A DNA stretch of 64,000 bases from Chamaesiphon sp. (GTDB lineage: Bacteria; Cyanobacteriota; Cyanobacteriia; Cyanobacteriales; Chamaesiphonaceae). The DNA is taken from the NCBI GenBank assembly GCA_965246715.1, contig CBDFFH010000027.1, positions 96,001-160,000 of the forward strand. The letters run 5' to 3'. A model generated the notes under the pieces. It saw only the letters and a program-made list of their open reading frames with translations, did not search any database and was not told where the DNA came from. Position 1 is the first letter of the stretch, and the number at the start of each line of letters is the position of its first letter. The position numbers and the translations under genes are program-made. Positions 11,279-62,617 of the stretch are shown here, one piece after another.

Positions 11279-11765
11279 GTGAAAATACTAATCGATGCTC
11301 AGTGTTTTTTGTGGTGGTTTGTCGAACCCGATCGCTTGAGTGCGGAAACGATCGCCGCCATCTCTGACGAAACTAACTCCCTCTGGTTTTCAGTCGCCAG
11401 CGCGTGCGAGCTGACAATGAAGGTGTCACTGGGAACGTTATCGCTGCCCGAACCGTTGGTGTAGCCTACCGTAGGTAATCGATTCGTATCTTGCCAGCCG
11501 GATGAAAAAGTTGAGGGCACAATTTTTGGATATTCGAGCAGATCAGGTATTAAAGATAGCAACGTTGCCGCTAGATCGATTCGATCTGATCCTCCTCGCC
11601 CAAGCACGAGTCGAGGGGATGACCCTTGTTACTGCGAACCCAGATCTGGCTAATAACGATGTGGAAATCCTCCTCAACGACTCGGACGAATGCAACACCA
11701 ATAGAATGTCCGGGAGTCAAAGAGCCAGAACCGAATTAGCGTCAGGCAAAAGTCTAAATCGATAG
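11279..11765 (+). pseudogene. vapC: PIN-domain VapC toxin disrupted by a 22-bp insertion
   Basis: Two ORF halves equal the intact copy at 27100-27564 once 11456-11477 is removed. Confidence 0.9.
11456..11477 (+). mobile_element. 22-bp double-hairpin micro-element in CG^ATCG
   Basis: TTGGTGTAGCCTACCGTAGGTA; the empty site is visible in the paralog near 27385. Confidence 0.9.
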
Positions 11766-11870
11766 TCGCCAAGTTCGGGAACCGTCGCTATTAATTCAAG
11801 GAAACTCAACGGAGATTGCAAGATCCGAAAATCGAACTCAACATCGACCGTAAATTCGCACACATTGAAA

Positions 11871-11907
11871 GAGTAGTTAGTTAGCTATGTGGCTGACTAA
11901 CTACTCC
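11871..11907. terminator. hairpin downstream of vapC (possible terminator)
   Basis: GAGTAGTTAGTTAGC-tatgtg-GCTGACTAACTACTC followed by a T-run; mirrored near 26960-26995. Confidence 0.55.
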
Positions 11908-12206
11908 ATTTTTTTCATTAATTGTAAAGTTTTATTTGCTATTCGATCTGACCTTGCTTATTTTTGTCAATCGTCTATAATCTCATGCGAATAAAAGAGG
12001 GGTTGAATTTAACTTAACCAACTAATTAAGTCAAGTTTATACTGCTTTGAGCACGGCTGTTATTGCTTAATTCCCGATCGACTGAATCTTGGATTAAAGG
12101 CAATTGCAGCCTAGATTTTTATATCTAAACCGTTCGTAGTTTGACGTGCAATTGCTCGAATAAATCGAGTCAAAACTTATCTTCCTTGAAAACATAGAGT
12201 GTCATC

Positions 12207-12632
12207 ATGAACTACACCACTTCACTAAGCAAACCTAGAAATAAAATTTCTTGGAAATATATTCAGTATGCCTTGATTTCCTGTTTCTCCCCAATTATTT
12301 GGGGATGGAACTTAGCTCCTAGAGCTGATGCCGCTCCAATCTACGATGCTTTCGTAACAGTATCGACTACTAAGATTGCAACGATAATGGCTGGCTTCCC
12401 AGTCGCAGGGCCGCTATTTACGACTCTGTTTACTGCGATTGTCAATCTGATCCCTTGGTCTGTATTGCTGATAGTCGGTGGTATTGTCATCTGGCAAGCT
12501 TATCTGGGATATCAGGAATACGATCGAGAAAACTTTTCTGGGATAGTTAAACCGATGTTAAATATCATCGTCCTGGTAATTCTCGTCATTGCCACAGATA
12601 GAATTATCAACTTTATATTTACTGGTGCTTAA
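12207..12632 (+). CDS. membrane protein, TrbC/VirB2 pilin-like (copy 1)
   Basis: Signal-like N-terminus (RADA) and hydrophobic helices; first gene before virB3/virB4-like genes. Confidence 0.55.
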   Translation: MNYTTSLSKPRNKISWKYIQYALISCFSPIIWGWNLAPRADAAPIYDAFVTVSTTKIATIMAGFPVAGPLFTTLFTAIVNLIPWSVLLIVGGIVIWQAYLGYQEYDRENFSGIVKPMLNIIVLVILVIATDRIINFIFTGA

Positions 12633-12676
12633 TTCAATTAAATGTCTAATAGCTGTGACAGCTTTTACCTAATTAT

Positions 12677-12970
12677 ATGGAAAGAAAAACGCGAATCGAA
12701 GTCAATAGAGCATTGAGACGGAGAGCGAAGATGATGGGTATCCCTCGCGATGTCGCGATCGTTTTGGCACTAATCGTGGTTTTCTGTCTATTTCTAGGAT
12801 ATTTGAAAGTTCCTGGTAACATCGTTACAGCTATTTTTGTCACTTTATTTTTCACTGCCATACTCTCTCTCAAGGATGTCCTAGCAAGAAACAGGGAACC
12901 AAAAAATTACACCAGAGGATGTCTAAATTATCGTTCGCCTAGCGCTCCCTTGGGGAAATCGCCGCTTTAA
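12677..12970 (+). CDS. VirB3-like membrane protein (copy 1, altered)
   Basis: Two TM segments; 9-bp deletion and altered C-terminus relative to 25887-26216. Confidence 0.55.
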   Translation: MERKTRIEVNRALRRRAKMMGIPRDVAIVLALIVVFCLFLGYLKVPGNIVTAIFVTLFFTAILSLKDVLARNREPKNYTRGCLNYRSPSAPLGKSPL

Positions 12971-13040
12971 GAAAAATTAGTTTGCCACCGCTTCAGTGAA
13001 TTAATTACTTGGTTTAAATCCTTTAATTTGTTTATCGGTT

Positions 13041-13108
13041 ATGAAAAATAAAGAAGGCAAAAAATCTCAAAAGCCACAACGACAGCTCAGAAAAATAAAG
13101 CATGAAGG
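13041..13108 (+). pseudogene. first ~22 codons of a VirB4-like ATPase, cut by ISKra4
   Basis: MKNKEGKKSQKPQRQLRKIKHEG versus MKNKESNKPLSQKLKLRKIRHKG of 23049-25838. Confidence 0.7.
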
Positions 13109-14122
13109 GGGAGCATCCCACTTTTTATTCGATCGACAGAGGTAAATCTTATGTACTATTATGATGGTTGAGGAATTTGCCTCTAAATGGAAGCAGATTG
13201 ACAATAATTTTGAGATAATGAAGTCAAGCCAAGTACATTAAAGTAGTGTGATGAGTCCAGAAGAACGAGAAGAGATTGCAGCATATACTGAAGCAATTGC
13301 TAAAATCCTGTATAAAAATACGCCGATAGAACAACTAACTAGCTTAGGGAAAATAGAAGAGGTGGTGCGAGATAGAATGCAAGAATATGTGATGCCGTCA
13401 GTCGGAATTTTTTTATCAAAAATGTCACCGGAGAAAGCGGTGGATACGAAAGACATATTAAAAGCATCATCGGAGAGCTAGTGATTACAAGTAATCAGGC
13501 CAACAAGCTGGAAGTAAAAAGTCATTCACAAATTAGCCCTTACTTAGAAGCATGTTGTTTGAGGATAAGTGCATCAGTTTCTTATGAAAGGACGACTGAA
13601 GAAATTAAATATTTAACGGGAATAGAAATATCGAAAAGTACTCAACAGAGATTGATTCATCGACAAGAATTTGAATTGCCACAAGCTGAATCAATTGTCG
13701 CAGAATTAAGTGTAGATGGCGGCAATATCCGAGTCCGAACATTAGAAGGAGAGCCATCTAGCTGGAAAGGGTATAAAGCAACAGTATTGCATGGACACCA
13801 GGTAATTGCAGGTTCATTCCAAGAAAATGATGTGCTTATTAGCTGGGTAAATAGTCAAGAGTTAGCACCGATTGTTACTTGCTTGGGTGATGGACATGAT
13901 GGCGTATGGAATATTATTCAAGAATTTGCACCGACTGGAGAAAGAAGAGAAATTCTTGATTGGTTCTGGAGCGATTGAATCTACGATTAAGCAGATAGAT
14001 CGTCGCACAAAAATCTCTGGAGCGCAGTGGAAGGCTGAAAACGTCCCTCAAGTACTAGCCCATCGCTGCGCTTACCTTAATGGGTTAATTTGCGATCGCT
14101 AAATAAAAAGTGGGATGCTCCC
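13109..14122 (+). mobile_element. ISKra4-family insertion sequence, internally deleted
   Basis: 21-bp TIR GGGAGCATCCCACTTTTTATT at both ends; transposase pieces with ELSVDGG, GDGHDGVW, EILDW and IGSGAIES; no target duplication. Confidence 0.8.
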
Positions 14123-14814
14123 AAACATATCTTGCTATTCATTTGACCGATCGACCGATCTATTTCCATGATTTGGTTGCCAATCGCACTTTAATAGAAT
14201 GTCCGATCGGTATGGCTATTTATCATAGTCATCTTGAATCGATTAAGAACATCGGTGAAGAAAATGAGTTTGACGAGCGATGTCAGATATTTGTTGGGTG
14301 GTTATACGATCTCGCTGGACAAAAGGAATTATACGATGGCGAGTATGTCGGCCAACCTTTATATATTAAAGGACAATATATACTCGATATCGTCGAAAAA
14401 GCCGGATACTCTGATTTTTATTCCTGTTCTCTGGAAGAATATTTAGGTCTGCCGTTCGATCCCGAAAGACTATATTTCGTGCCACCACATTTTGTCAAAG
14501 ATGAAATTCTCAATCTGTCGCGATTGGGGATAGATCGCATTGTTGAGTGGAATAGTCCAGTGGATATTTGCAATGTATTTACCGAACAAGATCGATCGAC
14601 TGGCTCTAGTTCTCTATGTGTTATTGGTGGCGATCTCGAACAATCTTTAGATACGGCAGGCTTTAAAAGAGAATTCTTTATCGACAGCAATAAAAAGTAT
14701 TATATCCCTGCCAATTTAACGATCGATGGGCAATTCAGATCGCTAACTTCTGATGATATTTGCGATCTGGTTGCATACAACGAGAAAAATATTAAACATT
14801 GCGCTCCTTTCTGA
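14123..14814 (+). CDS. hypothetical protein, probably 5'-truncated by the IS
   Basis: The ORF track start (14110) lies inside the IS TIR. Confidence 0.5.
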
Positions 14815-14838
14815 ATTTTTAATTAGGAAAAATAGATG

Positions 14839-15786
14839 CAGGAAATTAACATCATCAGGTACGGCAAAGAGCACACTTTTTAATTTTAGCTTCGCAGCAA
14901 ACTAAAGTCAATCAGTTGATGGACATATTTGATATTAGTTATAAAACGGTTTATAACTGGATAAATCGATGGGAGTCGGAAGGAATGGTCGGGCTATATA
15001 ATCAACCAGGCAGAGGCAGGAAAAAGACATTTAATTCTGATCAATCAAAAAAAATTAAAGACTGGGCAAAGCAGGAGCCAAGACAGTTGAAACAAGTGGT
15101 ACAAAAAGTCAAAGCGGAATGGGATATTGACATTAGTACTAAAACCATCAAGAGAATACTTAAATCATTGTCAATGAGTTGGCATCGGATGCGCCGAGGT
15201 GTTAGGGGAGAGCCAGATCCAGCGGAATACATCCAAAAGCAAGCAGAGCTAGCCAAATTAAAACAATTAGAAGATGCTGGAGAAATTAGTTTGTATTATT
15301 TAGATGAAACTGGTTTTTGCTTGATTCCTGTGGTACCTTATGGCTGGCAAAATATTGGTGAATATTTATCAATAGATAGTAGTCGGAGTAAGCGATTAAA
15401 CGTTTTAGGAATTATCAGCCGAAAGAATCATCTTGAAGCCTATATCTCAACTCAAACTATTAACTCTGACGTGATTGCTACCTGTATAGATACTTTTTTC
15501 CCAGTTGTCAATCTACCTACTTATATTGTGGTAGATCGAGCGAGTATTCATACTAGTGGGGCGATTTTTGAACGCCTTGAAGAATGGAAAGAGAGAGGTA
15601 TAACTATCTTTGAATTGCCTGCTTATTCTCCTGAATTAAATTTAATTGAGATCTTATGGCGATTTATTAAATATGAATGGCTGACAATAGATGCGTACTC
15701 TAGCTGGCAATCATTGGTATTGTCTGTTGAAAAGATCCTCAAAGAATTTGGTAAAAACTATGTAATTAATTTTGTCTAGCTACTTA
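14839..15786 (+). mobile_element. IS630-family transposase, left end missing (ORF 14916-15779)
   Basis: YLDETGF, VVDRASIH and LPAYSPELNLIEILW DDE motifs; HHQVRQRAH N-terminal remnant upstream. Confidence 0.85.
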
Positions 15787-17343: not shown

Positions 17344-18613
17344 TGTCACAACCAGACCTTACCCAACTAATGACTCAGCACCGGATAATCTTGGTGCGCT
17401 GTAATCCACTCGATCGCGAATGGATCGTCAGTACTCACTTGAGCGATTGCCAGCGGTGGCGATTGAATGTTGCGATTCTCCAAGGGAGAGGCTACGCCAA
17501 CGCCAACGATGCGATCGCTTCGCTCGATTTATCTACGAATATAATTGGAAGCTGCCGACTGCTGCGGAAATTACCGAGTTATTTGGCGAATACCACTTCG
17601 AGCCAAGCGAGCGCAATCTCAGGCTGGCATCGGGGCTAGCTTACCAAGATCTCAAGCTCGCACTGCAACAATCGATCGACCATCCAGAGCCAGAACTATA
17701 TTTAGAAACTTATCGCAACGCACGACTTTCCCTGCTAGGTGTTAAATACGATCCGCCCCCAGCATTCAAAGAAATCGCTGGATTAGATGAATTGGTGCTG
17801 GCAATCGATAAGCTGAAATTTAGATTCAGCCAACGTGCGATCGATATTGGACTACCTTACCCGAAAGGCTGGCTGCTAGTCGGGATACCAGGAACGGGAA
17901 AAACATATTCTGCGCGATCGATCGCCTCAGCACTGGGCTACCCCATGTTATCGCTAGAGATCGACAAAATTAAGGTCGGTGGTTTGACGGCAATGGCAAG
18001 GGTTTTAGAAATCGCTCGCGTTTGTGCCCCATGTATTTTCTACATGGACGAGATCGAGAAGCTATTTACCAGGGACGATAAGCCACTTCTATCCCTACTA
18101 TTAACTTGGCTGCAAGATAAAACATTCCCAGTTTTTGTTATCGGTACTCTCAATCGGATTGAAGATTTACCCGTTGAGGCTACTCGTGCTGGTCGATTTG
18201 ATTGTGTTTGGGAAGTCGATTCTCCCGATGCCGAATCTCGTCTGAATTTATTCATACTATTTCTCAACCGATTTGACTCTAGATTTAAAGACGATCTAGT
18301 TTTTGATAAATACGAGTGGCAAAGCATTCTCGATGAAACGATTGAGTATGTCGGTGCAGAAATCGAGCAAATTGTCATCGATACAATTGCAAGAATTAAA
18401 GAGGGCGATCCTGATGGAGAAGTTACAGCAAGAGATTTACTTGAGGAAGCAATGCAATTTAATTGTCTGTTCGAGCGCAATTCCAAACAAATTGTCACAA
18501 TCAGAAACTCAATCCGCGAATTAGCAAAGCCCTCTCATTCAAAAAAACAGAGTATTCTGGCACCTCGGAATTTCGATCCTTACCGACCTGCAAAAGTAAC
18601 ATCATCAAATTAA
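17343..18613 (+). CDS. AAA+ ATPase; 5' region split across two frames
   Basis: Walker A GIPGTGKT, Walker B IFYMDE and SRH TRAGRFD; the plausible start at 17343 is in a different frame from the ATPase domain. Confidence 0.75.
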
Positions 18614-19376: not shown

Positions 19377-20293
19377 GAACCTGTTTGAAAAGTTTGAGGA
19401 TAGCTTACCCAGCATGAGTTTTAGGCTCTAATCGACGAACCATCAAATGAACCATAGCAGCAAACAGCATCATTTCGCTGGTAGTGGGCAAAAATTCATA
19501 GTCTTTACTTAAACGCCGATAATGTCCAAACCAGGAGTAAGTCCGCTCCACCACCCAACGTTTAGGAATAACCTGAAAACCAGGTTTCTCATCAGTACGC
19601 TTGAGATGTTCCAACTTCCAGCCAAACTGTCGTTCGATCTTTGCCACAAATTCCTTACCAGCAAAGGTGCTGTCGATCCAAATCACTTGCAGGCACTGCC
19701 ATAACCAAGCCCAGAACGTGGCTAGTAAAATCATCCCCGCATGGTCGGAGCGTCCAGCACTATGCACACAGACACCCAGCAGCAGACCCATTGTATCGAC
19801 CAAGATGGTTCGTTTACGTCCTTTAACCTTCTTGCCACCATCAAATCCGATCTCCTCACCCCCACTGGCTGTTTTCACCGATTGACTATCCACGCTCCCT
19901 GCACTCGGTTGGGCATTTCTTCCGGCTGCTAGTCGCACCTTTACTCGTAATTCATGATTGAGTTTCTGCCATGTCCCATCTGCCTCCCATGCGCGGAAAT
20001 AGGTGTAAACACTCGGCCATTTTGGTAGGTCATGGGGCATTGCTCGCCATTTAATCCCGTTAGCCAGCAGATAGAAGATTGCATTGAGCACTTCTCTCAT
20101 CTCTAAGCTCCGAGGACGACCTCCTTGTTTGGCCGCCGGAATATACGGTTCTAAAATTTGCCACTGGTCATCTGTGAGGTCTGTGTCGTATGCTAGTCGT
20201 GTCATTATAAGGGTCTGTTTTTAGACCCTTTTACTTTACAATTGCCTTGTCACAGAGGCTCAGAGGCGTTCTCAATACTTTTCAAACAGCTTC
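19377..20293 (-). mobile_element. IS5-family IS (IS1031-like); transposase 19405-20205
   Basis: YDTDLTDDQW, VDSQSVK, KRWVVERTYSW and RRLSKDYE motifs; TIR GAA(C/G)CTGTTTGAAAAGT; flanks TTA and TCA differ. Confidence 0.9.
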
Positions 20294-21991: not shown

Positions 21992-22042
21992 GGACGTTCG
22001 ATTCGTTCGCGTAGCGTACCGTAGGTAATCGAACACTATGAA

Positions 22043-30448: not shown

Positions 30449-30492
30449 CGTTGGCGTAGCCGCGCTCGAAGTAGGTAATCGCGATGTAAATC

Positions 30493-31411: not shown

Positions 31412-31653
31412 GTTGATTGCGCTAGAGACAGATGGATTCTCAATCGAGTTGGCATTGCTTTAGCAACGCAGGCTCGAAAAAATTGACATCTTTAAAACAA
31501 TAGATTCGGTTCGCACCAAACTCAAGTCGAACCCGCTCGTGTTGGCGAATGCCTGTCGTTAGGTACAGTGTGAGCGTTGCTTGTTGACGGAGCCGCGCCG
31601 CGAGGTAATCGATCGAGTTAATTGGCGATCCTTGTCCTCACCAAGTGAACTAA

Positions 31654-32052: not shown

Positions 32053-32214
32053 ATTACCCGATCCCGGACGATCTGAGTTGTGCTTCGGTAGCTCGTTGGC
32101 GTAGCCTCCGCTTCGCGGAATCTCTGGTGTGGGATCGCTCTTTAACTAACGAATTTGCCTCATCGTTGGCGGTAGCGGAGCGTTTGCCTTAGCAATAGCC
32201 TGCTACGCGGAATC

Positions 32215-32590
32215 GATAGTAGCAAACGACAACTTCTATACTGGGGCGATGGTGAAACGCCGATGGATCTGACGACCACTGATGATATCGCCAAGTATGT
32301 CGCCGAAGCCGCGAGCGACCCCAGTTTAGCCAACACCGCCTTAGAAGTCGCTGGTGATACGCTGACTGCCAAGCAATTAAAAGCCAGTTATGAAGTGGCA
32401 ACGGGTCAGCACTTAGTGGAAAAACAATTGGGCAGTATCGCCGAGATGCAAGCTGAGATCGCGACCAAAAAAGCGTCAGCGAGTACAGTGGAAGAGTACG
32501 TTTACGACCAGTATATGTACGGGATGCTATCGGGTAAAGGCAAGCTCGATTACCTCCGGTACACGCTGCTAACGGATTGAGGACGATTAC
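32215..32590 (+). pseudogene. NmrA-family C-terminal fragment
   Basis: YWGDGETPMDLTTTDDIAKYVAEAA...GKGKLD matches 43562-44470; interrupted by micro-elements. Confidence 0.8.
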
Positions 32591-32609
32591 CTACGGTAGG
32601 CTACGCCAA
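32551..32609 (-). mobile_element. two 22-bp micro-elements (32551-32572 and 32588-32609)
   Basis: Removing both restores CTCGATCGGATTGAGGACGATCG (LDRIEDDR, versus LDRIENDR in the paralog). Confidence 0.8.
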
Positions 32610-35806: not shown

Positions 35807-36022
35807 GATGTCTCCTGTTGTGTTTTGGTTGAGTTTGTGTAATTTGCGATTACCTCGCGGCGCGGCTACGCCAACGCGTTGGCGGAAGCCTGCCGTTAAG
35901 CACAGCGTGGGTTCTACCCAATCGCTTATACGGATCGTTCGATCTAGTGATGGCGATCTAAAATCTCAACGACTGTCGATCTCCACAGCCAAAGTCACTA
36001 TTTGACGACTTTGGACGATTGC

Positions 36023-36835
36023 TTAGAGTTGCGTATCCGAATCGGTAGGGCGAATTATCAATTGATTGACATTCACTCGTGGTGGTTGAGTCACTGCATA
36101 AACAACTGCTGCGGCTACATCTTCGGGCTGCAACTGTTCGATCGAGGCGACCGAATCCAGAAAGCCTTGACGCAAGCTGGGATCGCTAATGTGTGTCGCC
36201 AAATCGGTCTCAACCAGTCCCGGTTCGACAACGGTAATCCGAATCCGATCGGCTTTACTGACTTCTAGGCGTAACGCATTGCTGAAGGCTTCGACGGCAA
36301 ACTTAGAAGCGCAGTAGCCAGATGTACCAGCACCTACGAATAAACCTGCTGTTGAGGAAATGTTGACAATATGACCGCCTCCCTGCGCTTTCATCAATGG
36401 GATCGCTGCCTTACAAGCAATCATTAAGCCCAAAGTGTTAACCTCAAACATTCGCCGCCAACTGCTCACTTCTGCGGTTTCAACAGAACCCGCATCCGCA
36501 ATACCCGCACTATTGATTAAAATGTCGAGCCGTCCCCAGTGAGTGTAAGCTCGATCGATAAGTTCAAAGGTAGCTCGTTCGTCAGACAGATCGACAGGCA
36601 ACACCAATACCTCGCCGCCAGCATGAGTGATGTCATCGGAGATCGCCTGGAGACGGTCTTCTCGTCGAGCAGCAAGGACGAGTTTGGCTCCTTCTGCGGC
36701 TAGTGCTTTAGCAGTGGCACTGCCAATTCCCGATGATGCACCTGTAACTAGTGCGACCTTGCCATTGAGTTTACCGGATGTCGTTTGGGCGATTCTCCGG
36801 TGGAGAGGCTCCGCCAACGATTGAGTTGCAGTCAT
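36023..36835 (-). CDS. SDR family oxidoreductase
   Basis: TGASSGIG, YCASK and VVEPGLVET motifs; in-frame 24-bp micro-element at 36794-36817. Confidence 0.9.
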   Translation of the reverse strand: MTATQSLAEPLHRRIAQTTSGKLNGKVALVTGASSGIGSATAKALAAEGAKLVLAARREDRLQAISDDITHAGGEVLVLPVDLSDERATFELIDRAYTHWGRLDILINSAGIADAGSVETAEVSSWRRMFEVNTLGLMIACKAAIPLMKAQGGGHIVNISSTAGLFVGAGTSGYCASKFAVEAFSNALRLEVSKADRIRITVVEPGLVETDLATHISDPSLRQGFLDSVASIEQLQPEDVAAAVVYAVTQPPRVNVNQLIIRPTDSDTQL

Positions 36836-40840: not shown

Positions 40841-41160
40841 AATTTGTGCTCCTCGATCGTAAATATTGCTAGAACTAGTGAAGGAAAAACGATTCTCCGT
40901 AGAAGAGGCTCCCGCCAACGACTCGATCTGTCATGCTCTGTTTGGATGCTTATACCCAACCCCGATCGCGCCGATAAGATTCAAAGTCGCTCAGTGCAGA
41001 AAAGTCGCGTTTCAGCACCATAAACGCATTACATAGCGCGATCGATCGTGCCTGCGCCATCAGCCTTAATGTTTTACGGAAAACCACGCTGTGGCATCGA
41101 TTTGTTCCAAATCGATCGCTATGTATTGAAGATAACTATTGCCACAAAATCAATAATCGG

Positions 41161-46280: not shown

Positions 46281-46388
46281 GATTTTCCTTGTAAATTTTA
46301 CAGAATTTGTCATTTGTCGCGATTGGTCGCAGCGGAGGCTACGCCAACGATTCGTCGGAGCTAAACTCAAATCACCTAATGTTAGGTT

Positions 46389-47475: not shown

Positions 47476-47731
47476 TGATAAATCCTTGTAATTTACGCGG
47501 TTATTAAAACGATCGCCGACTAGTTCTCGATTACCTCTCGGCGCGGCTCCGCCAACGAGCAAAGTTTACCCTGTGCCTAACGGCAGACATCCGCCACCGC
47601 GAAAGACTTGGGCTTGAGTTTGGTGCGAACCAAATAAATCTATTGTTGTAAAGATGCCAATTTGTTCGAGTCTGTGGTGCTAAAGCAATGTCAACTCGAT
47701 TTAGAACCCATCTGTCTCTATCGTAATGAAC

Positions 47732-51405: not shown

Positions 51406-51539
51406 TTCTATGCTTGACCTCGCCAGCCAGTAGGGTGGGCAGTGCCCACGAGCAAATTCTGACGGAGCAATGATTTCAGATTGTTATTGCGATCGCTATT
51501 CATTCACTCGTTGGCATCGCCTACCGAAGGTAATCGCAA

Positions 51540-51919: not shown

Positions 51920-52969
51920 TTAAGTATTCGGAGCAGTTAACCAGTTGTGTTGATAAAGATGGTTCCAAGCAGTGCGAAGGTGGCTAACCTTGAAGATATT
52001 CCGTTTGCGTTCGCTCCACTCTTGAACTAACTCGATCGCTCGATCGCAGTCAATTGCCGCTTGCGGATCTTCTTTTGCGACCCAGTGGACTGTTGCCAGC
52101 ATTTCCATTCCGTAGGGCGTTTCAAAGCCAACAATCAGGTTACTAACACGCTCTAAATGTGAATGAGATTCTTCACAACCCAAGAGAAATGCCTGCGCTT
52201 CTTCTCTTCCTGCGGGTAAAACAGCGATTTGAGAGTTTTGGGATCGATCTCCGTAACCTTTGATAAAATGTCCTTCAATTGCTTGCAGTACATGATTCAG
52301 GTTGTCAGCATAAGGCCCATACCGATCTTTTTGATAACGTAGTTTTAAGGGTTCACCTGCTTCTTGTAGGAAGTAAGCAAGTTTCTGAATCTCTAATTTG
52401 GAGAGACTGTAACCTGGAACACCGTATAAATCCAATAATCGAACGAATAAAGCACGAGGGCGGGTCATATTCGCCTTTTTAGTGCCAGCTTTCATCTTGT
52501 CCGCAGGTACGCCGCTAGGCTCGAAAATGATTACTTTAACTTCTGGTAAATTCTCAAACGCTTTGACGATCAGTGGCTTAACATCATTCCAATCCAGTCC
52601 ACCGTTACCACAACCAAGAGGTGGAATGGCGATAGATTCTATGCCCAGCCGTTGAACATCTGTTGCTAATGCTTCCAGTCCAGACTGAATATCATCAATT
52701 CTCGATTTTTCTTTCCAGTGACGTTTGGTAGGGAAGTTGATCGCATAGCGGGGGAAAAGCTTACCCGTTGAGACGATGAACATCTCTCCTGGCTTGACTT
52801 CCTTTGCTGTGCAAGCCTTTTTGTACTCTTTGAAAACTTCAGGAAAGACCTGTTTGAACTGCAAAGCAATACCTTTACCCATTACGCCAACACAATTAAC
52901 CGTGTTAACAAGGGCTACAGCATTCTCATCAAGGATGTTGCCTTGCTTAAATTCAATCATGATTATCAC
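51920..52969 (-). CDS. darG: DarG macrodomain antitoxin (DNA ADP-ribosyl glycohydrolase)
   Basis: NTVNCVGVMGKGIALQFK, NFPTKRHW, IPPLGCGNGGL and a DarG-type C-terminus (QKLAYFLQ, YGPYA, GFETPYGMEMLATVHW). Confidence 0.9.
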   Translation of the reverse strand: MIIMIEFKQGNILDENAVALVNTVNCVGVMGKGIALQFKQVFPEVFKEYKKACTAKEVKPGEMFIVSTGKLFPRYAINFPTKRHWKEKSRIDDIQSGLEALATDVQRLGIESIAIPPLGCGNGGLDWNDVKPLIVKAFENLPEVKVIIFEPSGVPADKMKAGTKKANMTRPRALFVRLLDLYGVPGYSLSKLEIQKLAYFLQEAGEPLKLRYQKDRYGPYADNLNHVLQAIEGHFIKGYGDRSQNSQIAVLPAGREEAQAFLLGCEESHSHLERVSNLIVGFETPYGMEMLATVHWVAKEDPQAAIDCDRAIELVQEWSERKRNIFKVSHLRTAWNHLYQHNWLTAPNT

Positions 52970-53011
52970 CTTGTTCGTACAAAAGTACTAATACAAATAT
53001 TTTATCAATTA

Positions 53012-53641
53012 TTAGTAATACCAACTAGAGTAAACCTTCACAGGGGGGCAGTAGTTAACATTTTGCAACAATTCTTCAACTTTTCCTTTCATTTGGGGGT
53101 TGATTACACCAATCTCTCGAATCAGATGCCACGGACAAATTTGATGAACCAGAAATTCAGCTTGTCTCCTACACTTACGGTTAGGGTCATCTTCTGTATC
53201 AAACCAGTACCTCGATTGCATCAAGTTCCAGTCAATTACATCATCTAAGGCATTCAGATCGTTGTAAAAAGAGGAGTATCCCATAATGGCATGACCATCG
53301 GTAAATGCAAACTCGATCTCTGTCAATGAGATGGATTCAGCCTCACAAACAAAATAGATGACTGGATTTTGACCGTCTTGATAACCTGCAACATTGCCCA
53401 TTTTAATGGTGTAGAGCATTGGAGATCGTGGGGCAAAGTAGAAAGGTACATAGTCGTGCAACACTCCCTTTGCACCGCAGGGAACCTGAATAGTAGCTCT
53501 TCTATCTTGAATGCTTTGATGGGCTATATCTGCATAATTAATCTGTTGCCGATCGAGTGTATTCTTAGCCATCAACCCCCCCGCATCAATAATCGATTGT
53601 AGGTTTCGGAGATGCGTTATGTGATAGATAGAGGTAGGCAT
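53012..53641 (-). CDS. darT: DarT DNA ADP-ribosyltransferase toxin (DUF4433)
   Basis: IYHITH, LHDYVPFYFAPRSPMLY, FTDGHA and RQAEFLV motifs; lies upstream of darG. Confidence 0.9.
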   Translation of the reverse strand: MPTSIYHITHLRNLQSIIDAGGLMAKNTLDRQQINYADIAHQSIQDRRATIQVPCGAKGVLHDYVPFYFAPRSPMLYTIKMGNVAGYQDGQNPVIYFVCEAESISLTEIEFAFTDGHAIMGYSSFYNDLNALDDVIDWNLMQSRYWFDTEDDPNRKCRRQAEFLVHQICPWHLIREIGVINPQMKGKVEELLQNVNYCPPVKVYSSWYY

Positions 53642-54110
53642 CAGAATTTTGGCTACTATGACAGGTTTTAGATTAGCAACTTATAAATGTTGAGTTTCGC
53701 TAATGCTCTACCCAACCTACAACTTTTTTGTCCTGATTCACCGCTTAGCAACTCCCCGTGAGTAGTCGCCAGAGCTAACTCTCCTTGCACCAAATCGGCC
53801 TCTAAAGCTGATAATTCTTCAGCTTTGCGCTATAACTCCTCTAGCTCTGGGCTAAGTGAGATGACTAATCGATCGCTCATAACTAGATCCAAGACTCCGA
53901 AACATAGAATTAAGGTATGTGCGATATACCCAAACTTAGTATGCCCAAAATCTAGATCTGTAGTTCAATTAAGATGAATCCCGACAATCTACAAATATTG
54001 CAATCGGGAGCCTTTTGCCCACTTATTGCCGATCGACAGTTTACGCTCGATTACCTCCAGTACGCTACGCGAACGCATATATGGTGCTTAATCTAAGGCT
54101 GAAGCATGGC

Positions 54111-54160
54111 TTGACAATTAAGCAAATGCTAAAGTATCCTTTAGTTAAGCATTTGCTTAA
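54111..54160 (+). promoter_or_regulatory. sigma70-like promoter with two ArsR-type palindromic operators
   Basis: TTGACA-18 bp-TATCCT; TTAAGCAAATGCTAAA (54118) and TTAAGCATTTGCTTAA (54145). Confidence 0.7.
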
Positions 54161-54168
54161 TTATCTCT

Positions 54169-54492
54169 ATGAGTCGATCGACTGCCAGTACCGACATTTT
54201 TCAAGCGATCGCCGATCCCACTCGGCGGGCGATTCTGGATCGTTTGCAGTGTGGCGAGCAGCCTGTCAAGCACCTTGCGGAACCCTTCGCAATGTCTTTA
54301 CCTGCCATTTCGCAACACTTGCAAGTCTTATCCGCAGCGGGATTAGTCATCCAGCACCGCCGGGGACGACAGCGCATCTACCGACTCAATCCAGCATCCC
54401 TCAAGCCAGTATCAGACTGGTTAAGTCAGTACGAACAGTTTTGGACGGCAAAACTGGATGCTTTAGGAGAGTATCTGGAGGAACAACTATGA
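54169..54492 (+). CDS. ArsR/SmtB family regulator
   Basis: FQAIADPTRRAIL, SLPAISQHLQVL and GRQRIYRL motifs. Confidence 0.9.
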   Translation: MSRSTASTDIFQAIADPTRRAILDRLQCGEQPVKHLAEPFAMSLPAISQHLQVLSAAGLVIQHRRGRQRIYRLNPASLKPVSDWLSQYEQFWTAKLDALGEYLEEQL

Positions 54493-55442
54493 ACCAGGAG
54501 ATGGAGCTGGAAACATTTTATCCCCATCCACCGGAGCGCGTGTGGCAGGCATTGACCGATCGCCGTGCTTTGAGTGTCTGGATGATGAACAACGATTTTG
54601 AAGCTTGCTTGGGGCATCAGTTTCGGTTTGAAAGTTGTCCGCTACCAGGTTTAAAAGTCACAATTTACTGCCAAGTGTTAGAAGTGGAAGCACCAAAACG
54701 CCTAGTTTATAGCTGGAAAGAGCATCCCTCGGATATAGCGTCACGAGTAATCTGGACATTATTTCCAGTCGAAGGCGGCACCCAAGTCCGACTTCAGCAT
54801 CGAGGTACAGGTGCTGTGTCAATTCCTGTATTTGGGCGGCCAATCGCCGATCGATCTCGTAGGGAGATTGACTCTCAATTCACATCTGGGACAGCGATCG
54901 CACATCCCTTCCAGACAGCCGCTTCTACCTCAAAAGACGGCTTACATCGATATTCGGGATTCCCGAACTACCAAATCAACTGGCATTACTGGTTGCACCA
55001 AAAATTACCTGGAGTATTAACTATGAGTTCAAATCAACAGCTTCTGCAAAGTTTATACGCAGCCTTCAATAACCGCGAGCTGGAAACAATCATCTCGGTG
55101 ATGCACCCAGAGGTGAAATGGGCGAACGGGGTAGAAGGCGGTTTCGTCTATGGACGCGACGCGGTGCGCGAATACTGGACTAATCAATATAAAGTTATTC
55201 AAGTGCAGCTTGAAACCTTAAAGTTTGAGACGGATGAAAAGAATCGCAATGTCGTTACCGTTCATCAAATCGTCAGAGATTTACAAGGCAATCTGCTTGC
55301 GGATATGACAGTTAAGCAAATCTTTACCATTGAGAATGATGCGTTGGCACAGCCCCTCTGCAAGAGGATCGTGCTTTATGAAATTGGCGAAACTGAAACC
55401 ATCCAAGAGATGATTCAACAGACGAAAGCTGCCAACGATTGA
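54489..55442 (+). CDS. SRPBCC (AHSA1-like) protein in frame with a SnoaL-like domain (second ATG at 55023)
   Basis: HPPERVWQALTD and PKRLVYSW, then LYAAFNNR and HPEVKWANG; no stop between the two. Confidence 0.75.
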   Translation: MNQEMELETFYPHPPERVWQALTDRRALSVWMMNNDFEACLGHQFRFESCPLPGLKVTIYCQVLEVEAPKRLVYSWKEHPSDIASRVIWTLFPVEGGTQVRLQHRGTGAVSIPVFGRPIADRSRREIDSQFTSGTAIAHPFQTAASTSKDGLHRYSGFPNYQINWHYWLHQKLPGVLTMSSNQQLLQSLYAAFNNRELETIISVMHPEVKWANGVEGGFVYGRDAVREYWTNQYKVIQVQLETLKFETDEKNRNVVTVHQIVRDLQGNLLADMTVKQIFTIENDALAQPLCKRIVLYEIGETETIQEMIQQTKAAND

Positions 55443-55614
55443 GCAAAGCCCACACTTCGCGAACGATGATGTTTCGGCGATTACCTCCGGTAGGCTTCGC
55501 CAACGATCGAGCAGGGATCGATCGAAGCCATAGAAGTCTGTCCACTTCCAGCGTCCGGCTCTGGTGCCTAAAGTCCGCGCTCCAGCGATCAAAGGCACGA
55601 CAACATCTATAGAA

Positions 55615-56101: not shown

Positions 56102-56341
56102 AGACAGATGTTCAGTAGCTTTTAACTTTCACTGTTTGTTCCTATAACTAATTCAAGTTTGAGATCGCGCATTGCTCAAGAGATCTCAAATAGGTTCTAT
56201 ATATTTAGCTTTGTCAGATGAGGGTGGGCAAATTACTGGTAAGTACTGGTCTAATTCCAAAATCGATCGACCTTCAGAACTTTCAACAGATATGGATTTG
56301 GCCGAACAATTAGTAGCTAAGTGTCATGAGCCAACCAAAAT

Positions 56342-57277
56342 CTAAACACCAAAACCGATCGCGTTCTTGCTGTCTTGGATGTATTGCTTCGGAGTAATGG
56401 ACACCAGCCGCTTGAAGTGCGAACCAAAGTGGCTTTGACTCACAAATCCAGTTTCAATAGCTACACTCTCGTTGGCGAAGCCTCTCCTTCAGGAGAATCG
56501 ATTTCTTTTTTCTAAGTAGACGTTTTGCCTGTAAAATTCGCAATTGAATTTGATAAGCGTGCGGCGGCATTCCAAAAGTTCTGCTAAAAGATTACCTCCG
56601 GTAGGCTATGCCAACGGTTGAGATGAAAGGAACTCAAATTCGCCACCTGTGCCAATTGCTCTAACGATATTTCTCGATTGTAATTATCTTCTAGATAGTC
56701 ACGAACGTGATGGACAGGCTGAATTTCCGTTTCTAAATTGGCGAGATCCGGTGGTTTTTCTGAATAGCGGAGAATTAATTGTGCTAACAAATCTAGGGTC
56801 AATGTTTGTTGTTCGAGACCAGAGGTAGATCGTTCGATGGCTTGATGAACTCGAACGAATTGGGTATTAAAGTCGCCGTCATGGACTAATGGCAGTGGGA
56901 AAAGTGGCAGATCTGTCTCGCGTCCCGCAACTTCTGTCGCCACTTGTTGAAGTAAATCTATACCCACCCGTAGCCCGCGAAAAGTGCCGCTCCGCTCGCT
57001 AGGAGCATCGACTTGATGCAATTCACCTGGCTGTGTCACAACTAAGGTTTCTGAGGACACGCTGTGGATCGTGCCTCGGTAGTTTAACTGCCAGCCGTTA
57101 CCCTGTCTAAGGTTAAGCTCCAGTTCTTCATGAAAATGGCGGGGCAATGAAAAGCTTTTACAAGTATTCTGAAAGAATTCGATTACCTCCGGTAGGCTAC
57201 GCCAACGATGGCAGGTATCGCGATCGCCAAAGTTTAGGACGTAATAGATCTTCTTTCATCGGCAGATTTGCTTTCAT
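56342..57277 (-). pseudogene. AraC regulator disrupted by three micro-elements
   Basis: Insertions at 57184-57205, 56593-56614 and 56472-56496; removal restores YLPSIEF, HLNRSFS and KSIESVAIET. Confidence 0.9.
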
Positions 57278-57294
57278 AAATAGATTTAAGGAAC

Positions 57295-57669
57295 TCAAGT
57301 TTGTGCCAGCACAAGTGACTTGTTAAACTGCCGCAGGGGTTCAATTTTGACTGGCAGTTTCTCTCCTAACCACAGAGCATAATCTGTATGGTCTGCCACT
57401 GCATCTCCCGTATTAGGGTGAATGAGAATATCTAAGTTTTCGCGGTGCAGCATTAGCCAAGGCACGACCTTATCGAACTGATCTAAGGCAAAAGCAGCCT
57501 GGTACATCGACTTTGGATGAGGGCCGATCGGTCGATCGTGCCAGCTTCCCAACTGCACTTCAAAGCGATCGCCTAATCCATACCGCACACGCTCTGCCAT
57601 CTCGCGGGTCGTGAGGTCGTAATAAATATGGGCATGAAAGCTGGTAATTTCAGCGGTGTGTTCCAGCAT
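57295..57669 (-). CDS. DOPA 4,5-dioxygenase family protein
   Basis: FHAHIYY, PIGPHP, ILIHPNTG and DHT..ALWLG motifs. Confidence 0.85.
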   Translation of the reverse strand: MLEHTAEITSFHAHIYYDLTTREMAERVRYGLGDRFEVQLGSWHDRPIGPHPKSMYQAAFALDQFDKVVPWLMLHRENLDILIHPNTGDAVADHTDYALWLGEKLPVKIEPLRQFNKSLVLAQT

Positions 57670-57742
57670 GTATTTTAATTTTGCCGATTTTGGATGTTAT
57701 GACTTTCTGGTTAAGAACGAACGTGCCTATAACCTAACAAAT

Positions 57743-58591: not shown

Positions 58592-58696
58592 AGGTGATGT
58601 TTCTAGTCGGATCGCTCGTCAGTGCCAGGGCGGACTGCTGCGACATCGCGGTAATTTACAGAGGATGCTGTCGCTGGCTTGGAGTAGGGCAGGGTT

Positions 58697-60142
58697 TTAC
58701 TCGACAATTTGAGCTTTTGCCCCTCGGCAGTCTGTTTCCCTCACTACAAATAAGGCAACCAGTAGTCCGACGATCGCGAAACCAACACTACCGATCTCTG
58801 CGGCTCCAAATCCTGCGGTCAATGCGATTCGCCCCGCATCTGCCACTCCATCCAACTGAGCGAGCCTTGCCTGCGTTCGAGCCGTTGAGACGGCAATCAG
58901 GATGGCGAGTCCCAACGCCGCTCCAATCTGCTGTGAGGTGTTGAGTAATCCAGATGCCATCCCTTGTTCGCGATCGCTAATGCCCGCCGTCGCCGCGATC
59001 GTCACCGAAACCAGAGTCATCACGAAGCCCAAGCCAATGATGACCGTACCGGGCAACAAATCCCGCACGAAGTTGCCCTGCACCGGAATGCGGCTCAGGT
59101 GTAAGAGTCCGACTACTACCAGCGTTATGCTGCCTGTCAGCGTCGTTTTGATGCCAAATCGGGTCGCACTTTGGGACGCGATCGGGGCAGCAACCATCGA
59201 GGCGATCGCATGGGGCAAAAATGCCAGTCCGGTTTGCAGAGCCGAATAGTGCAGCACCTGCTGCATGTACAGGGTCAAAATGAAAATCGTCGAGCCGATT
59301 GCGGCGTTCATGAGTAGTCCAATCAGATTTGCCCCAGTTAATGTTTGCAAGCGAAAGATATCCAGTGACACGAGCGGATCTTGAGCATGTGCCTCAATCC
59401 AAACAAATGCTGCCAGTAGTACCAGCGCGATCGCAAATAAAATCAACGTTGGCGCAGAACTCCAGCCCGATCCACTCGCTTGCTCTAACGCGTAAACCAG
59501 CACCACCAGTCCAGATGTCACCGTCACTGCCCCCAGGAGATCGATTTTATGGCCGCTCGATCGCGCTTGGCTTTCTGGCAGCAGGATTGGTGTGAAGAAA
59601 AGGGTCAACAAGCCGAGTGGCACATTCACAAACATCACCCATCGCCAGCTCAAGGCATCCGTAAGAATGCCACCGAGTAATACACCCACCGCAAACCCAC
59701 CCGCCGAGATCGCCCCCCAAACACTCAAAGCACGATTCCGAGCTGCTCCCTCAGCAAAAGTGGTAGTCAGAATCGAGAGGGCTGCTGGAGAAACGATCGC
59801 CGCTCCCAGTCCTTGCACGGCACGAGCCACAACCAGGATCGCTTGAGACTGAGCTAGACCCCCGATTAAAGAAGCGATTGTAAACAGTCCCAACCCGATC
59901 GTCAAGACGCGTCGCCGCCCAAACAAATCTGCCGCTCTACCGCCCAGCAGCAAAAAGCCGCCAAACGCGAGTGAATAAGCACTGACTATCCACTGTAAAT
60001 TTTGCTGCGAGAAGCCCAAATCACGCTGGATGGAGTGGAGTGCCACGTTGACGATCGAGAAGTCGAGTACCATCATGAACCGAGCCGCACAGAGCAGCAG
60101 CAGGATCGGCCACGAGCGAGAGTTCGGTGTAGTTTGAGTCAT
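58697..60142 (-). CDS. DHA2 (EmrB/QacA) MFS efflux transporter
   Basis: LDFSIVNVAL, GGRAADLFGRRR and WRWVMFVNVP motifs. Confidence 0.9.
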   Translation of the reverse strand: MTQTTPNSRSWPILLLLCAARFMMVLDFSIVNVALHSIQRDLGFSQQNLQWIVSAYSLAFGGFLLLGGRAADLFGRRRVLTIGLGLFTIASLIGGLAQSQAILVVARAVQGLGAAIVSPAALSILTTTFAEGAARNRALSVWGAISAGGFAVGVLLGGILTDALSWRWVMFVNVPLGLLTLFFTPILLPESQARSSGHKIDLLGAVTVTSGLVVLVYALEQASGSGWSSAPTLILFAIALVLLAAFVWIEAHAQDPLVSLDIFRLQTLTGANLIGLLMNAAIGSTIFILTLYMQQVLHYSALQTGLAFLPHAIASMVAAPIASQSATRFGIKTTLTGSITLVVVGLLHLSRIPVQGNFVRDLLPGTVIIGLGFVMTLVSVTIAATAGISDREQGMASGLLNTSQQIGAALGLAILIAVSTARTQARLAQLDGVADAGRIALTAGFGAAEIGSVGFAIVGLLVALFVVRETDCRGAKAQIVE

Positions 60143-60256
60143 TTGAGATTACTAATTTGGCAACTCCTCGGAACGTTGATTTACAAAGCATGAACGGTCG
60201 AATTTAGAACTCGAAATCTCAAGCCTGGTTGGAGGTTCGGGCGATCGAAATCTCAG

Positions 60257-60997
60257 TTACATGTTTGCGCCGCCATTGGCACAAATATCTTGTCCGGTTA
60301 ACCACCGCCCTTCTTCGCTTACCAAAAATGCCACCACGGCTGCGATGTCTTGGGGCGTTCCGACGCGATTGAAGGGAGAACTGGCAGCGGCTCGCTGCTG
60401 CACTTCTGGCGGCAAATTGCCAAACATTCCAGGAATTGTGGGACCAGGCGTGACGGTATTGACGGTAATGCCGCGAGATCCAACTTCCTTTGCCATCACG
60501 ACGGTAAACAGCTTGATGGCTGCCTTACTCGCTGTATAAAGTGCCATCCCCGATTCAGGATAAAAGGTGGTCGAAGAGGAAATATTAACGATTCTGCCAC
60601 CGTCATTCATGTGTTTAGAGGCTTCCTGCAACGCAAACAAAACGCCGCGAACATTCAGGTCAAATACTTTGTCGTACTCGTCTTCAGTCACATCCGAGAT
60701 CGCGCCCATAAAACTCATGCCAGCATTGTTAACCAGAATATCGATGCGACCAAAGTGCTGCATCGTCTCAGCGAACAGACGGCGAATATCCGCCACCTGA
60801 CTCAGACTGGCTTGGATTGCCACGCTCTTACTACCCGCTGCGGCAATCGCCTCTACAACTTCATTGGCTTCCCGTTCACTGCCAGAATAGTTGATGACCA
60901 CCGTTGCCCCGTCGCGTCCCAACTGTTCCGCAATGCCTCGCCCGATGCCGCGCGACGAGCCAGTCACGATCGCCACTTTTCCAGTTAAAGGTGCCAT
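60257..60997 (-). CDS. SDR family oxidoreductase
   Basis: TGSSRGIG, NNAG and YTASK motifs. Confidence 0.9.
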   Translation of the reverse strand: MAPLTGKVAIVTGSSRGIGRGIAEQLGRDGATVVINYSGSEREANEVVEAIAAAGSKSVAIQASLSQVADIRRLFAETMQHFGRIDILVNNAGMSFMGAISDVTEDEYDKVFDLNVRGVLFALQEASKHMNDGGRIVNISSSTTFYPESGMALYTASKAAIKLFTVVMAKEVGSRGITVNTVTPGPTIPGMFGNLPPEVQQRAAASSPFNRVGTPQDIAAVVAFLVSEEGRWLTGQDICANGGANM

Positions 60998-61078
60998 AAA
61001 TGATTGTCCTCTATGTTAATTATTCAGCCGCTTGCACGAACGGCGATCGATCGGATGATTGACAAAGATCGCCAGAAA

Positions 61079-61984
61079 TTAAATTTTTGAAAGCACATCA
61101 ATCGCGCTCGTCCACCGGACATCGGGATAGCGGTCATTATCCAGGGGTGTATTCTGGACGCTGAACATACTGTATAAATACTGCTTGAGTTGCCAGCTAG
61201 AATATACTTCTTTTTCTCCTTCTGGGTGAGCAGCGCGATCTTGTTTATTTAAGGTAGAGAAATCTACCAGACTGCCCATTGGAATGAGCTTGAATTCTGT
61301 CTTTTTAACTTCTTTGCCGATTGCCACCAATTCGTTCGGGCTAATTTGGAAACTGGCAATTCGCAGAATTTTTGGAGTTGAGACATCGATCGCGGCAGCG
61401 GCAGTATAATCTGCCGTATTATCCATCGTTGTAAAGTCGATTTTCCAGTCGGGATTATCGCCCCAATAGCCGACGCTGTGATTTTTTACATCATAAAGCG
61501 GCGTGTTAGAGTTCAAAATTTCATTGGCAAAAGCTCCGTTCAAGATCGAAGTGGCTGCGATCGAGGATTTGTCTAGATATTGATGAAACTCTTTTCGGAG
61601 ATCGAAATTTCGATTTTCACCTGTGGGCAGTTTGGTAAAGTCAGAAGCAAAATCCGAGGGAATAAAGCGCGGTACACCTGCTGAGATTGCTGCATCCAGC
61701 AGTTTGATTTGCGAGTCAACAATTGTCTCGTGCAGTCCTGCCAAAGCCGAAACCACACACGATGTGCCTTGACAGGCTTGTTTGAGTTCCTCGACATCCG
61801 ACAGATCGACAGTAATTACTTTCGCACCGAGTGCGGTTAGTTTGGGGATTTTTTCCGGTTCGCTACCGTTGCGGACGATGGCGCGAACTTCTGCCCCTCT
61901 GGCTATCAATGCTTTAATGATTCGTCCGCCGAGATTACCCGTTCCACCTGCTACTAAAATTGGCTGATTCATGATGTTTTGCAC
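61079..61984 (-). CDS. NmrA family NAD(P)-binding protein
   Basis: Paralog of 48626-49519. Confidence 0.9.
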   Translation of the reverse strand: MQNIMNQPILVAGGTGNLGGRIIKALIARGAEVRAIVRNGSEPEKIPKLTALGAKVITVDLSDVEELKQACQGTSCVVSALAGLHETIVDSQIKLLDAAISAGVPRFIPSDFASDFTKLPTGENRNFDLRKEFHQYLDKSSIAATSILNGAFANEILNSNTPLYDVKNHSVGYWGDNPDWKIDFTTMDNTADYTAAAAIDVSTPKILRIASFQISPNELVAIGKEVKKTEFKLIPMGSLVDFSTLNKQDRAAHPEGEKEVYSSWQLKQYLYSMFSVQNTPLDNDRYPDVRWTSAIDVLSKI

Positions 61985-62032
61985 GTTTAAGTTTAAGGCT
62001 ATATAATCGAACCTGTCTTCAGCTTAATGAAC

Positions 62033-62617
62033 TTAATCGGCGAAATCTATCACGTTCTTGCTGTCTTGAATATATTGCTTAGGAGTGATACAAATCAGTC
62101 GCTTGAAATGTAAACCAAAGTGGCTTTGCGAGTCAAAGCCAGTTTCTGAGACGACTCGATCGATCGACCAGTCTTGACTGAGGAAACGTTTTGGTCGGTG
62201 AGATCGCGATCGTGGACTAACGGCAGCGGGAAAAATGGCAGATCTGTTTCGCGTCCAGCAACTTCGATCGCCACTTGTTGAAGTAAATCTAAACCGATCC
62301 GCAGTCCTCTAAAAGTGTAATCTCGTTGGCGGAGGCTCTTGCCTGAAGAGTTATCAGTCGAATCCGCCTGATGTGCTTCGCCCTGTTGTGTTATCACTAA
62401 TGTATTTGCTGGCACGTTGTGAGTCGTGCCTCTGTAATTAAACTGCCAGCCGTTACCCTGCTTGATATTTAGCTCCAGTTCTTCGTGAAAATGACGGGGC
62501 AATGAATGAGCACTTTGACCAGCACTATGCAATAACTCGATTACCTCCGGTAGGCTACGCCAACGAGGGTAGATAATGCGATCGCCAGATTCGAGTACGT
62601 GACTGCTGTGCTTTCAT
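62033..62617 (-). pseudogene. AraC regulator with micro-element insertions and an internal deletion
   Basis: 22-bp insertion at 62542-62563 in the PS^IE codons, another near 62326-62352; central part missing; 3' tail intact. Confidence 0.85.

Follow-up and report, generated by a model that had tools for sequence, protein, structure and literature searches.

The window analysed here is a 64,000-nucleotide stretch of a Chamaesiphon sp. genome (G000; contig C27, positions 96,001 to 160,000). It is an accessory-gene region with 88%-identical paralogues on contig C20 of the same genome, and it contains many inserts of 22 to 27 nucleotides that begin with TT, fold into two successive hairpins, and lie after a CG, mostly in CGATCG, the core of the highly iterated palindrome (HIP) octamer GCGATCGC. 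A first inspection of the window from its letters alone (the sequence-only reading) had described them as mobile micro-elements. We report that these inserts are real mobile copies of a repeat of the small dispersed repeat 5 (SDR5) type and that, in the informative cases, the mobile unit takes in two bases 3' of its second hairpin and the target loses the two bases after CG.

Copies, fold and mobility

The genome is 6.12 Mb long, with a GC content of 45.8% and 28,367 CGATCG sites. The octamer TCGATCGA (4,633 occurrences) outnumbers GCGATCGC (2,803), a profile given for Chamaesiphon and Geminocystis in the accessible part of PMC4390886. Copies were sought with a strict descriptor (CG followed by TT, a 3-bp stem, a second stem, and then ATC), with dinucleotide shuffles as the control, and the analysis used descriptor scans, shuffles, and pair counts rather than a covariance model. 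The window gave 16 strict hits against a mean of 0.13 (maximum 1) in 30 shuffles. A recognisable copy lies at each of the 23 positions named by the sequence-only reading, two of them being degenerate (32551 and 62326); 14 of the 16 strict hits coincide with these copies, and the other two (24390 and 57823) look like chance matches. A relaxed search recovered 21 of the 23 and one unlisted copy (55440-55463), and the copy at 40894 was found by the strict search only.

Across the genome, the strict descriptor gave 247 hits, among which lengths of 22 (62), 23 (14), 24 (144), and 25 (17) nucleotides were counted and 21 not once; in 1.15 Mb, there were 53 real hits against 6 in shuffled sequence. 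Heads consisting of CG, TT, and hairpin 1 numbered 365, and a perfect second stem of at least 4 bp was present in 256 of them. Copy density was 5-14 per 100 kb on contigs C2, C5, C9, C20, C27, C36, and C37, and mostly 1-3 per 100 kb on the other large contigs.

The order of parts is CG, TT, hairpin 1, hairpin 2 (4 or 5 bp with a 3-4-nt loop), and then mostly ATCG. Hairpin 1 is of the type GGC-GNA-GCC or CGC-GNA-GCG, and its outer pair is G-C in 136 cases, C-G in 39, and another combination in 8. Among 91 distinct 24-mers, pairs 2 to 5 of stem 2 exceeded all 1000 shuffles, and pair 1 gave no covariation signal (81 against a shuffle maximum of 83); the 22-mers were too uniform for this test. In 20 hand-picked 24-mers, 97.5% of the cells were paired, a value reached by none of 500 shuffles. 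Both stems therefore covary beyond shuffles, except for that first pair and the near-uniform 22-mers, and the earlier description of the element as non-coding and structure-selected was supported. Loop 1 has 3 nt in 236 copies and 4 nt in 16. It reads GNA, with G and A fixed and N free, in 196 of the 236 3-nt loops, and loop 2 of the 22-mers is GNA in 64 of 66, in agreement with the many GNA loops already seen in the window.

Self-nesting was also observed: 11 heads sit after TTSGCG, that is, in the first loop of the element itself. Relative to codirectional neighbouring genes, copies lay in sense 47 times and in antisense 48 times, showing no bias, and local GC skew was slightly related to copy orientation. 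The window had no Rfam match at gathering score. Local hopping in same-strand bursts was considered and rejected: neighbours less than 10 kb apart shared hairpin 2 and strand, but the signal was gone with one copy per flank-homology cluster (3.2 shared against 2.9 expected; same strand in 48.6 of 101), and the apparent sharing is due to a cassette array. At locus L151 (G000:C2:236000-245500), an array of small genes, toxin-antitoxin-like by eye, has a repeated intergenic unit between the genes that bears the element 15 times on one strand, resembling a cassette array.

Filled sites were paired with empty ones among G000 paralogues and in 1.2 Mb of the congener G020, sampled as 60 of its 20-kb stretches picked for element density. 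This yielded 67 non-redundant pairs, 43 of them at strict flank identity, with a net gain of 22 (21 pairs), 23 (4), 24 (41), or 25 (1) nucleotides and no target duplication. The copy at 55344 is filled in genomes G004 and G013 and empty in G003, G009, G012, and G017. The mobility claimed by the sequence-only reading is confirmed by exact filled and empty orthologues in unique genes. These orthologous empty sites refute the view that the copies are passengers of larger repeats or products of local mutation, which is extremely improbable in spite of the 25 copies amplified in repeat family A and those of the cassette array (G000:C2:236-245 kb); the 256 copies fall into 172 distinct flank clusters, which also speaks against it.

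ORF membership was judged with a simple open reading frame (ORF) caller. Inside predicted ORFs lay 43 of 118 24-mers against 2 of 89 copies of other lengths in G000; frame-keeping copies of 24 nt survive in genes, whereas other lengths break them. One site has two occupants, a 25-mer at window position 56472 and a 22-mer at its paralogue G000:C20:84234, which represents either repeat insertion or exchange between filled copies. The first six bases of the element are doubled at window 17501-17506 and at G000:C36:74172, as if copying had restarted at CG, and this fits polymerase slippage. A two-base AT target duplication was rejected, since copies starting with CG-AT are nearly all CGC-type and more decayed, which makes later mutation the better reading. 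In four contig sets, no joint skipping exactly one copy was present among the matches listed, a result that is uninformative.

Table 1. Micro-element copies in the window (window coordinates)
Copy	Position	Strand
22-mer, stem 1 with one G-T pair, in CG^ATCG	11456..11477	+
24-mer, loop 1 decayed	12934..12957	+
24-mer (17477-17500) with doubled first six bases (17501-17506) ahead of the copy	17477..17506	-
22-mer, CGC-type stem 1	22006..22027	+
27-nt copy, second hairpin irregular	30451..30477	+
Decayed 24-mer, left CG now TG	31584..31607	+
24-mer in CG^ATCT	32096..32119	+
Degenerate 22-mer, hairpin 2 intact, hairpin 1 broken	32551..32572	-
22-mer	32588..32609	-
24-mer, weak second hairpin; a head-only remnant adjoins on the opposite strand	35851..35874	-
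24-mer	36794..36817	-
25-mer, 4-nt loop 1	40894..40918	-
24-mer, decayed second hairpin	46324..46347	-
24-mer, weak second hairpin	47532..47555	-
22-mer, loop 1 decayed	51511..51532	+
22-mer, CGC-type	54052..54073	-
24-mer in frame in SnoaL-like domain gene (54015-55442), adding 8 residues	55344..55367	+
24-mer absent from the earlier list	55440..55463	-
22-mer	55482..55503	-
25-mer in disrupted AraC-type gene; its counterpart site in the G000:C20 paralogue is occupied by another copy (22-mer)	56472..56496	+
22-mer, frameshifts AraC-type gene, stop follows; C20 paralogue without copy	56593..56614	-
22-mer; C20 paralogue empty	57184..57205	-
Old degenerate copy, common to the C20 paralogue	62326..62350	+
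22-mer; exact empty CGATCG in the C20 paralogue	62542..62563	-

Other genes of the window include a toxin-antitoxin pair at 51920-53641, formed by a DarG-like macro-domain gene and a DarT gene, and two DDE transposase genes at 14916-15779 and 19405-20205 (Pfam: IS630-like and IS4/5-like). No tie was seen between these two transposase genes and the micro-element.

Target choice and the right junction

CG^ATCG (the caret marks the insertion point) holds 172 of the 256 G000 copies, compared with 7.5% of all CG sites in the genome. A pyrimidine precedes CG in 137 of these 172, and only 11 lie in the full octamer GCG^ATCGC, below its 9.9% background share, which supports the independence from the full octamer proposed by the sequence-only reading. 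Copies also follow CG in four other G000 repeats whose empty forms are present in the genome. In Nostoc-like genomes, element heads in ATCG are a minority (5 of 348 in G181, 45 of 267 in G276, and 18 of 188 in G197), and most copies sit within GNA hairpin loops of other small repeats. The target is CG-NN-S (S = C or G), not HIP itself.

Another possibility is capture of the element at CGATCG sites opened by a host nuclease that HIP or methylation directs. This alternative combines the target model of the sequence-only reading with the directed cutting of Elhai, which is proposed in the accessible part of PMC4390886. It is favoured by the excess of CG^ATCG and by empty CG-NN-CG sites, which read AT in 33 of 42 cases against a 58% background (p=0.005). 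However, the heads lie mostly outside HIP in the three Nostoc-like genomes, copy number barely tracks the CGATCG count (rho 0.23, p=0.06, 70 genomes), and genome G213 has 27,679 CGATCG sites but no copy in ATCG; we consider this capture improbable.

Some copies have been multiplied within a larger repeat, 25 of them in family A. The family A and B repeats of G000 (e.g., C36:50777-51025) are about 250 bp long and share their terminal inverted repeats with a 972-bp element that codes for a transposase; from copy to copy, the two palindromes inside them differ in orientation and order.

The right junction was examined in repeats that exist in filled and empty forms. One hairpin-2 variant of the Nostoc-like genomes, TCTCYAAGAG, occurs in many host repeats; 36 of its 39 listed copies, collected with a pattern restricted to certain flanks, continue with TTG. 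Two of these hosts were compared with their empty forms, which never have TT at this place: all 15 of one host have AA and all 113 of the other have NA (NA in 128 of 128 together). Their filled copies, among the matches listed, read TT in 8 and 5 cases, with the host sequence resuming directly after. In a third Nostoc-like host, N is A in 3 of 113 empty copies, and the filled copies read AA. In G000, repeat family A has AA at its empty sites and CA or TA at its filled ones; for family D, the empty form is AG and the filled form AG or TA.

Among the 43 strict pairs, 11 show a mismatch with the empty site at the first base 3' of the element, compared with 12 of 172 at positions -2, -1, +3, and +4 (p=0.0013). 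In orthologue pairs, this base differs in 6 of 21, against 3.9% for the A of CGATCG (p=1e-4). Boundaries are otherwise fixed, with differences in 0/43 pairs at -2, 3/43 at -1, 5/43 at +3, and 4/43 at +4. CG comes next after 9 of 17 non-AT pairs, against a 13% background. Events in CGATCG look like clean insertions because the target's two bases and the element's own both read AT. The absence of target duplication described in the sequence-only reading is supported, but the precise insertion at CG^ATC(G) was not borne out as described: the head also enters other repeats after CG, and a share of events replaces one or both of the target bases next to CG.

Relation to SDR5 and other known systems

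As far as the accessible texts go, SDR5 is 21 nt long and its function was still called unknown in 2026 (PMC13756078), its insertion point lies between the third and fourth base of HIP1 (PMC4390886), and it is confined to Nostocaceae (PMC5861425). In Nostoc-titled records, we found 21-nt inserts at GCG^ATCGC with a TT and GGC-GNA-GCC head and a 3-bp GNA second hairpin. When 180 kb of a Nostoc-like genome was examined for 21-nt spacings within GCG..ATCGC, no other repeated family turned up. We took these 21-mers to be probable SDR5 from their length and site. One Nostoc 21-mer differs from the common 22-mer of the window by one base change and the last base, making the relation to SDR5 suggested by the sequence-only reading closer than it had supposed.

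The window copies share with SDR5 the cut position, as shown by the 172 of 256 copies in CG^ATCG and by exact empty sites. They differ in length (22-27 nt, mostly 22 and 24, not 21) and in a host outside Nostocaceae. SDR5 is said to be limited to the full GCGATCGC octamer, which holds few of the present copies, and non-HIP repeats are also used here. SDR4, SDR5, and SDR6 of Elhai (2008) reportedly share a fold with compensatory changes, range from 21 to 27 nt, and include self-nesting in SDR4. The present element resembles SDR4 and SDR6 in its size, its dispersal, its covarying shared fold, self-nesting, and insertion into other small repeats. We conclude that it is a variant of a known, mechanistically unexplained family within the SDR4/5/6 structural group; it is filed as a variant because the window copies fall outside the narrow SDR5 definition in length, octamer use, and range.

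The head pattern occurs 57-537 times per genome in 24 of 24 congeners, compared with 0-1 for the reversed control. In a sample of 301 genomes of the phylum, it is abundant in the family of the window and in family f7, occurs in a few other families of the order, and elsewhere is near the control. Family f7 is probably Nostocaceae, judging from 21-mers that match named Nostoc records. Named records with the pattern include Moorena, Okeania, Dapis, Tolypothrix, Scytonema, and a Microcoleaceae genome, in a scan that covered 1/64 parts of the collection and gave many chance hits in high-GC bacteria. This range beyond Nostocaceae contradicts the statement in the accessible text of PMC5861425. Moorena G336 (the record of L083) matches the pattern 278 times; almost all of the 100 matches listed are CGC-type, and they have second hairpins of their own, a large independent expansion.

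Other systems offer partial parallels. REP-Mb of Marinomonas, a repetitive extragenic palindrome (REP) of REP/RAYT group 3 described in the accessible part of PMC8266576, likewise combines a tetranucleotide ending in AG, two bases, and a perfect 5-bp hairpin, and is strand-specific without duplication; by contrast, the tag lies here in a covarying hairpin with a free N, the junctions are not CT/CA, and there is no REPtron arrangement. Hairpin 1 equals the GCGNAGC mini-hairpin motif with one more closing pair, although the context of that motif in the accessible part of PMC13037366 is phage origins, promoters, and oligonucleotide engineering, not mobile elements. Non-autonomous IS200/IS605 elements and integron attC sites share a folded single strand, no duplication, and a short target motif. 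They differ in that the present element is about 10 times smaller, with no room for guide and subterminal hairpins, that two target bases are lost, and that no autonomous partner was seen among the Y1 loci and repeat families covered. In an integron cassette, the unit begins with TT and finishes with G, and its inverse core has AAC at the end. Here, G^TT forms the left junction, yet 85 of 91 distinct 24-mers have A as the last base of stem 2, and a right-end attC core is absent.

Possible routes of movement and HIP gain

We tentatively propose that the element may spread through copying of a single, folded DNA strand at a target cut with a two-base stagger. One target strand would be nicked after CG and the other strand two bases on. 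Each free 3' end would then anneal to a flank of a filled copy through one or two bases (CG, or G) and be extended through the copy, and the two-base overhangs would be lost. The right flank of the donor would bias which sites can be filled, with ATCG donors leading to HIP cores and NAG donors to GNA loops. We infer every enzymatic step of this target-primed copying, and likewise the mobilisation in trans by an enzyme that the sequence-only reading had put forward. Such copying would give fixed ends, no duplication, donor-type bases at both ends, a gain in copy number, and the link between right flank and target.

According to the accessible part of PMC13037366, GNA is alone among the 64 triloops in giving a DNA mini-hairpin that resists exonucleases, and the RNA counterparts have much lower stability. 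The GNA loops, weak as RNA, point to the TT-first strand acting as single-stranded DNA, and the mini-hairpins may keep the donor or newly made strand folded and nuclease-resistant. They also bear on a route in which an element transcript is reverse-transcribed from a nick in the target and a few target bases are lost. R2 retroelements give a precedent for such loss in target-primed reverse transcription, and Elhai (2008) reportedly discussed an RNA route. We regard this route as unlikely: the loops are DNA-type GNA triloops rather than GNRA tetraloops (236 against 16), and copies show no transcribed-strand bias.

Rather doubtful, though the strongest of the alternatives, is a single-strand recombinase (an HUH/Y1 enzyme such as RAYT, or an integron-like integrase) that excises the folded element, either as a linear head or in the form of a dumbbell circle, and inserts it in a target strand. 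The fixed ends without duplication would suit it, and the G^TT and G^AT junctions resemble the integron crossover, although the element is without the terminal G of an integron cassette. A hairpin-swapped 24-mer family in GCG^ATCGC, consisting of TT, a 4-bp hairpin, TT, and hairpin 1, corresponds to TT plus a circular permutation of G and the Nostoc 21-mer; it was found in 13 copies in 4 Nostoc-like genomes (L258-L268: G197, G276) and not in G020. The geometry of GNAG, two bases, and a 5-bp hairpin matches REP-Mb in the accessible part of PMC8266576. However, the same source gives CT/CA as the sites cut by RAYTs, while the junctions here are G^T and N^S. Further, a circle joined at one cut could not delete two target bases, and the GNAG is held inside a covarying hairpin.

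Copies lie within 1.3 kb of 17 of 37 RAYT-type loci, compared with 3 of 27 IS200-type rows, in a survey of Y1 neighbourhoods that obtained the protein from 65 of 76 fetched loci, but they have no fixed place or orientation near RAYT genes, and some lie within the gene. The sequence-only reading had suggested looking for a gene that tracks element abundance. RAYT transposases do not: two queries gave hits in 21 of 28 element-rich and 15 of 20 element-poor genomes (p=1.0), and neither matched in 7 element-rich genomes. RAYT as the mobiliser was rejected, as its presence, judged with these two queries, fails to track the element and its genes show no consistent layout. As a separate observation, copy frequency is about 4 times higher near RAYT-type than near IS200-type Y1 genes (L154, L155, L157, L188-L227).

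Several points weigh against target-primed copying into a staggered cut. One or two bases of pairing is very little for priming, and the hairpin-swapped family is easier to derive from a circle. The targets in families A, B, and C and in GNA loops are not CG-NN-CG palindromes. At the junction, the second base differs in 5 of 43 strict G000 pairs, which is not above the flanks, and 39 of 59 pairs with CG kept at the empty site read AT on both sides, where swap and insertion are indistinguishable. A wrong paralogue or later mutation may lie behind some junction differences, and conversion between filled copies could have carried the TT variant from host to host, given the exchange or repeat insertion seen at 56472. 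About half of the second loops of the 24-mers are non-GNA, and ViennaRNA does not favour the GNA strand (16/60 with DNA and 4/60 with RNA parameters), though its tables appear to us to have no GNA term. No mobilising enzyme came to light in a search that left reverse transcriptases, integrases, IS110, and methylases unprofiled, nor was an intermediate observed. No autonomous partner was seen among the six Y1 loci of G000 or among 45 of the 69 long-repeat families listed, families 16-27 being seen in part.

A further trace concerns the HIP sites. In G000, the first T of the element has become A in 9 of 46 CGC-type copies, in which a new CGATCG results, but in none of 130 GGC-type copies, in which it would not (p=3e-6); in the G020 stretches, the counts are 4 of 27 and 0 of 73. 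Examples are G000:C9:52995 and L287:15280. Imperfect copies make up 6 of 9 T-to-A copies and 6 of 37 other CGC-type copies in G000, which fits later mutation, whereas the G020 T-to-A copies are not more decayed (1 of 4 imperfect). The change, seen only where CGATCG arises, is a trace of biased HIP gain, although selection or a junction artefact may instead account for it. The ratchet model of Elhai concerns the outer bases of HIP1 (PMC4390886, accessible part), whereas T-to-A creates the hexamer itself.

The two-base swap, the wider CG-NN-S target, and the trace of HIP gain are new here as far as the literature searched goes. The swap is not mentioned in the accessible literature on SDR5, and no paper within the search reported a target swap or this element outside Nostocaceae; most subscription papers lay outside that search, including Elhai et al. 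2008 (Genome Res 18:1484), whose text or supplements may already describe the junctions.

Few mobile DNAs known are as small as these micro-elements, and the possible chemistry of their movement is narrowed by the swap and by the CG-NN-S target. Across hundreds of sites per genome, they have made 8-residue in-frame additions and broken other genes. The origin of HIP sites is a long-open question (PMC5861425 and PMC4390886, accessible parts), and as the ancestral state of each copy is known, T-to-A offers direct sequence evidence on HIP gain. It is possible, though we put it forward with more reserve than the copying route, that there is a widespread family of DNA parasites, 21-27 bases long, moving by a hitherto undescribed reaction in which the folded element as a whole takes the place of the two bases after CG, and that target choice is inherited from the donor flank rather than read by a transposase; the link between SDR5 and HIP1 would then be a special case, and the copies would report on how HIP sites are made.

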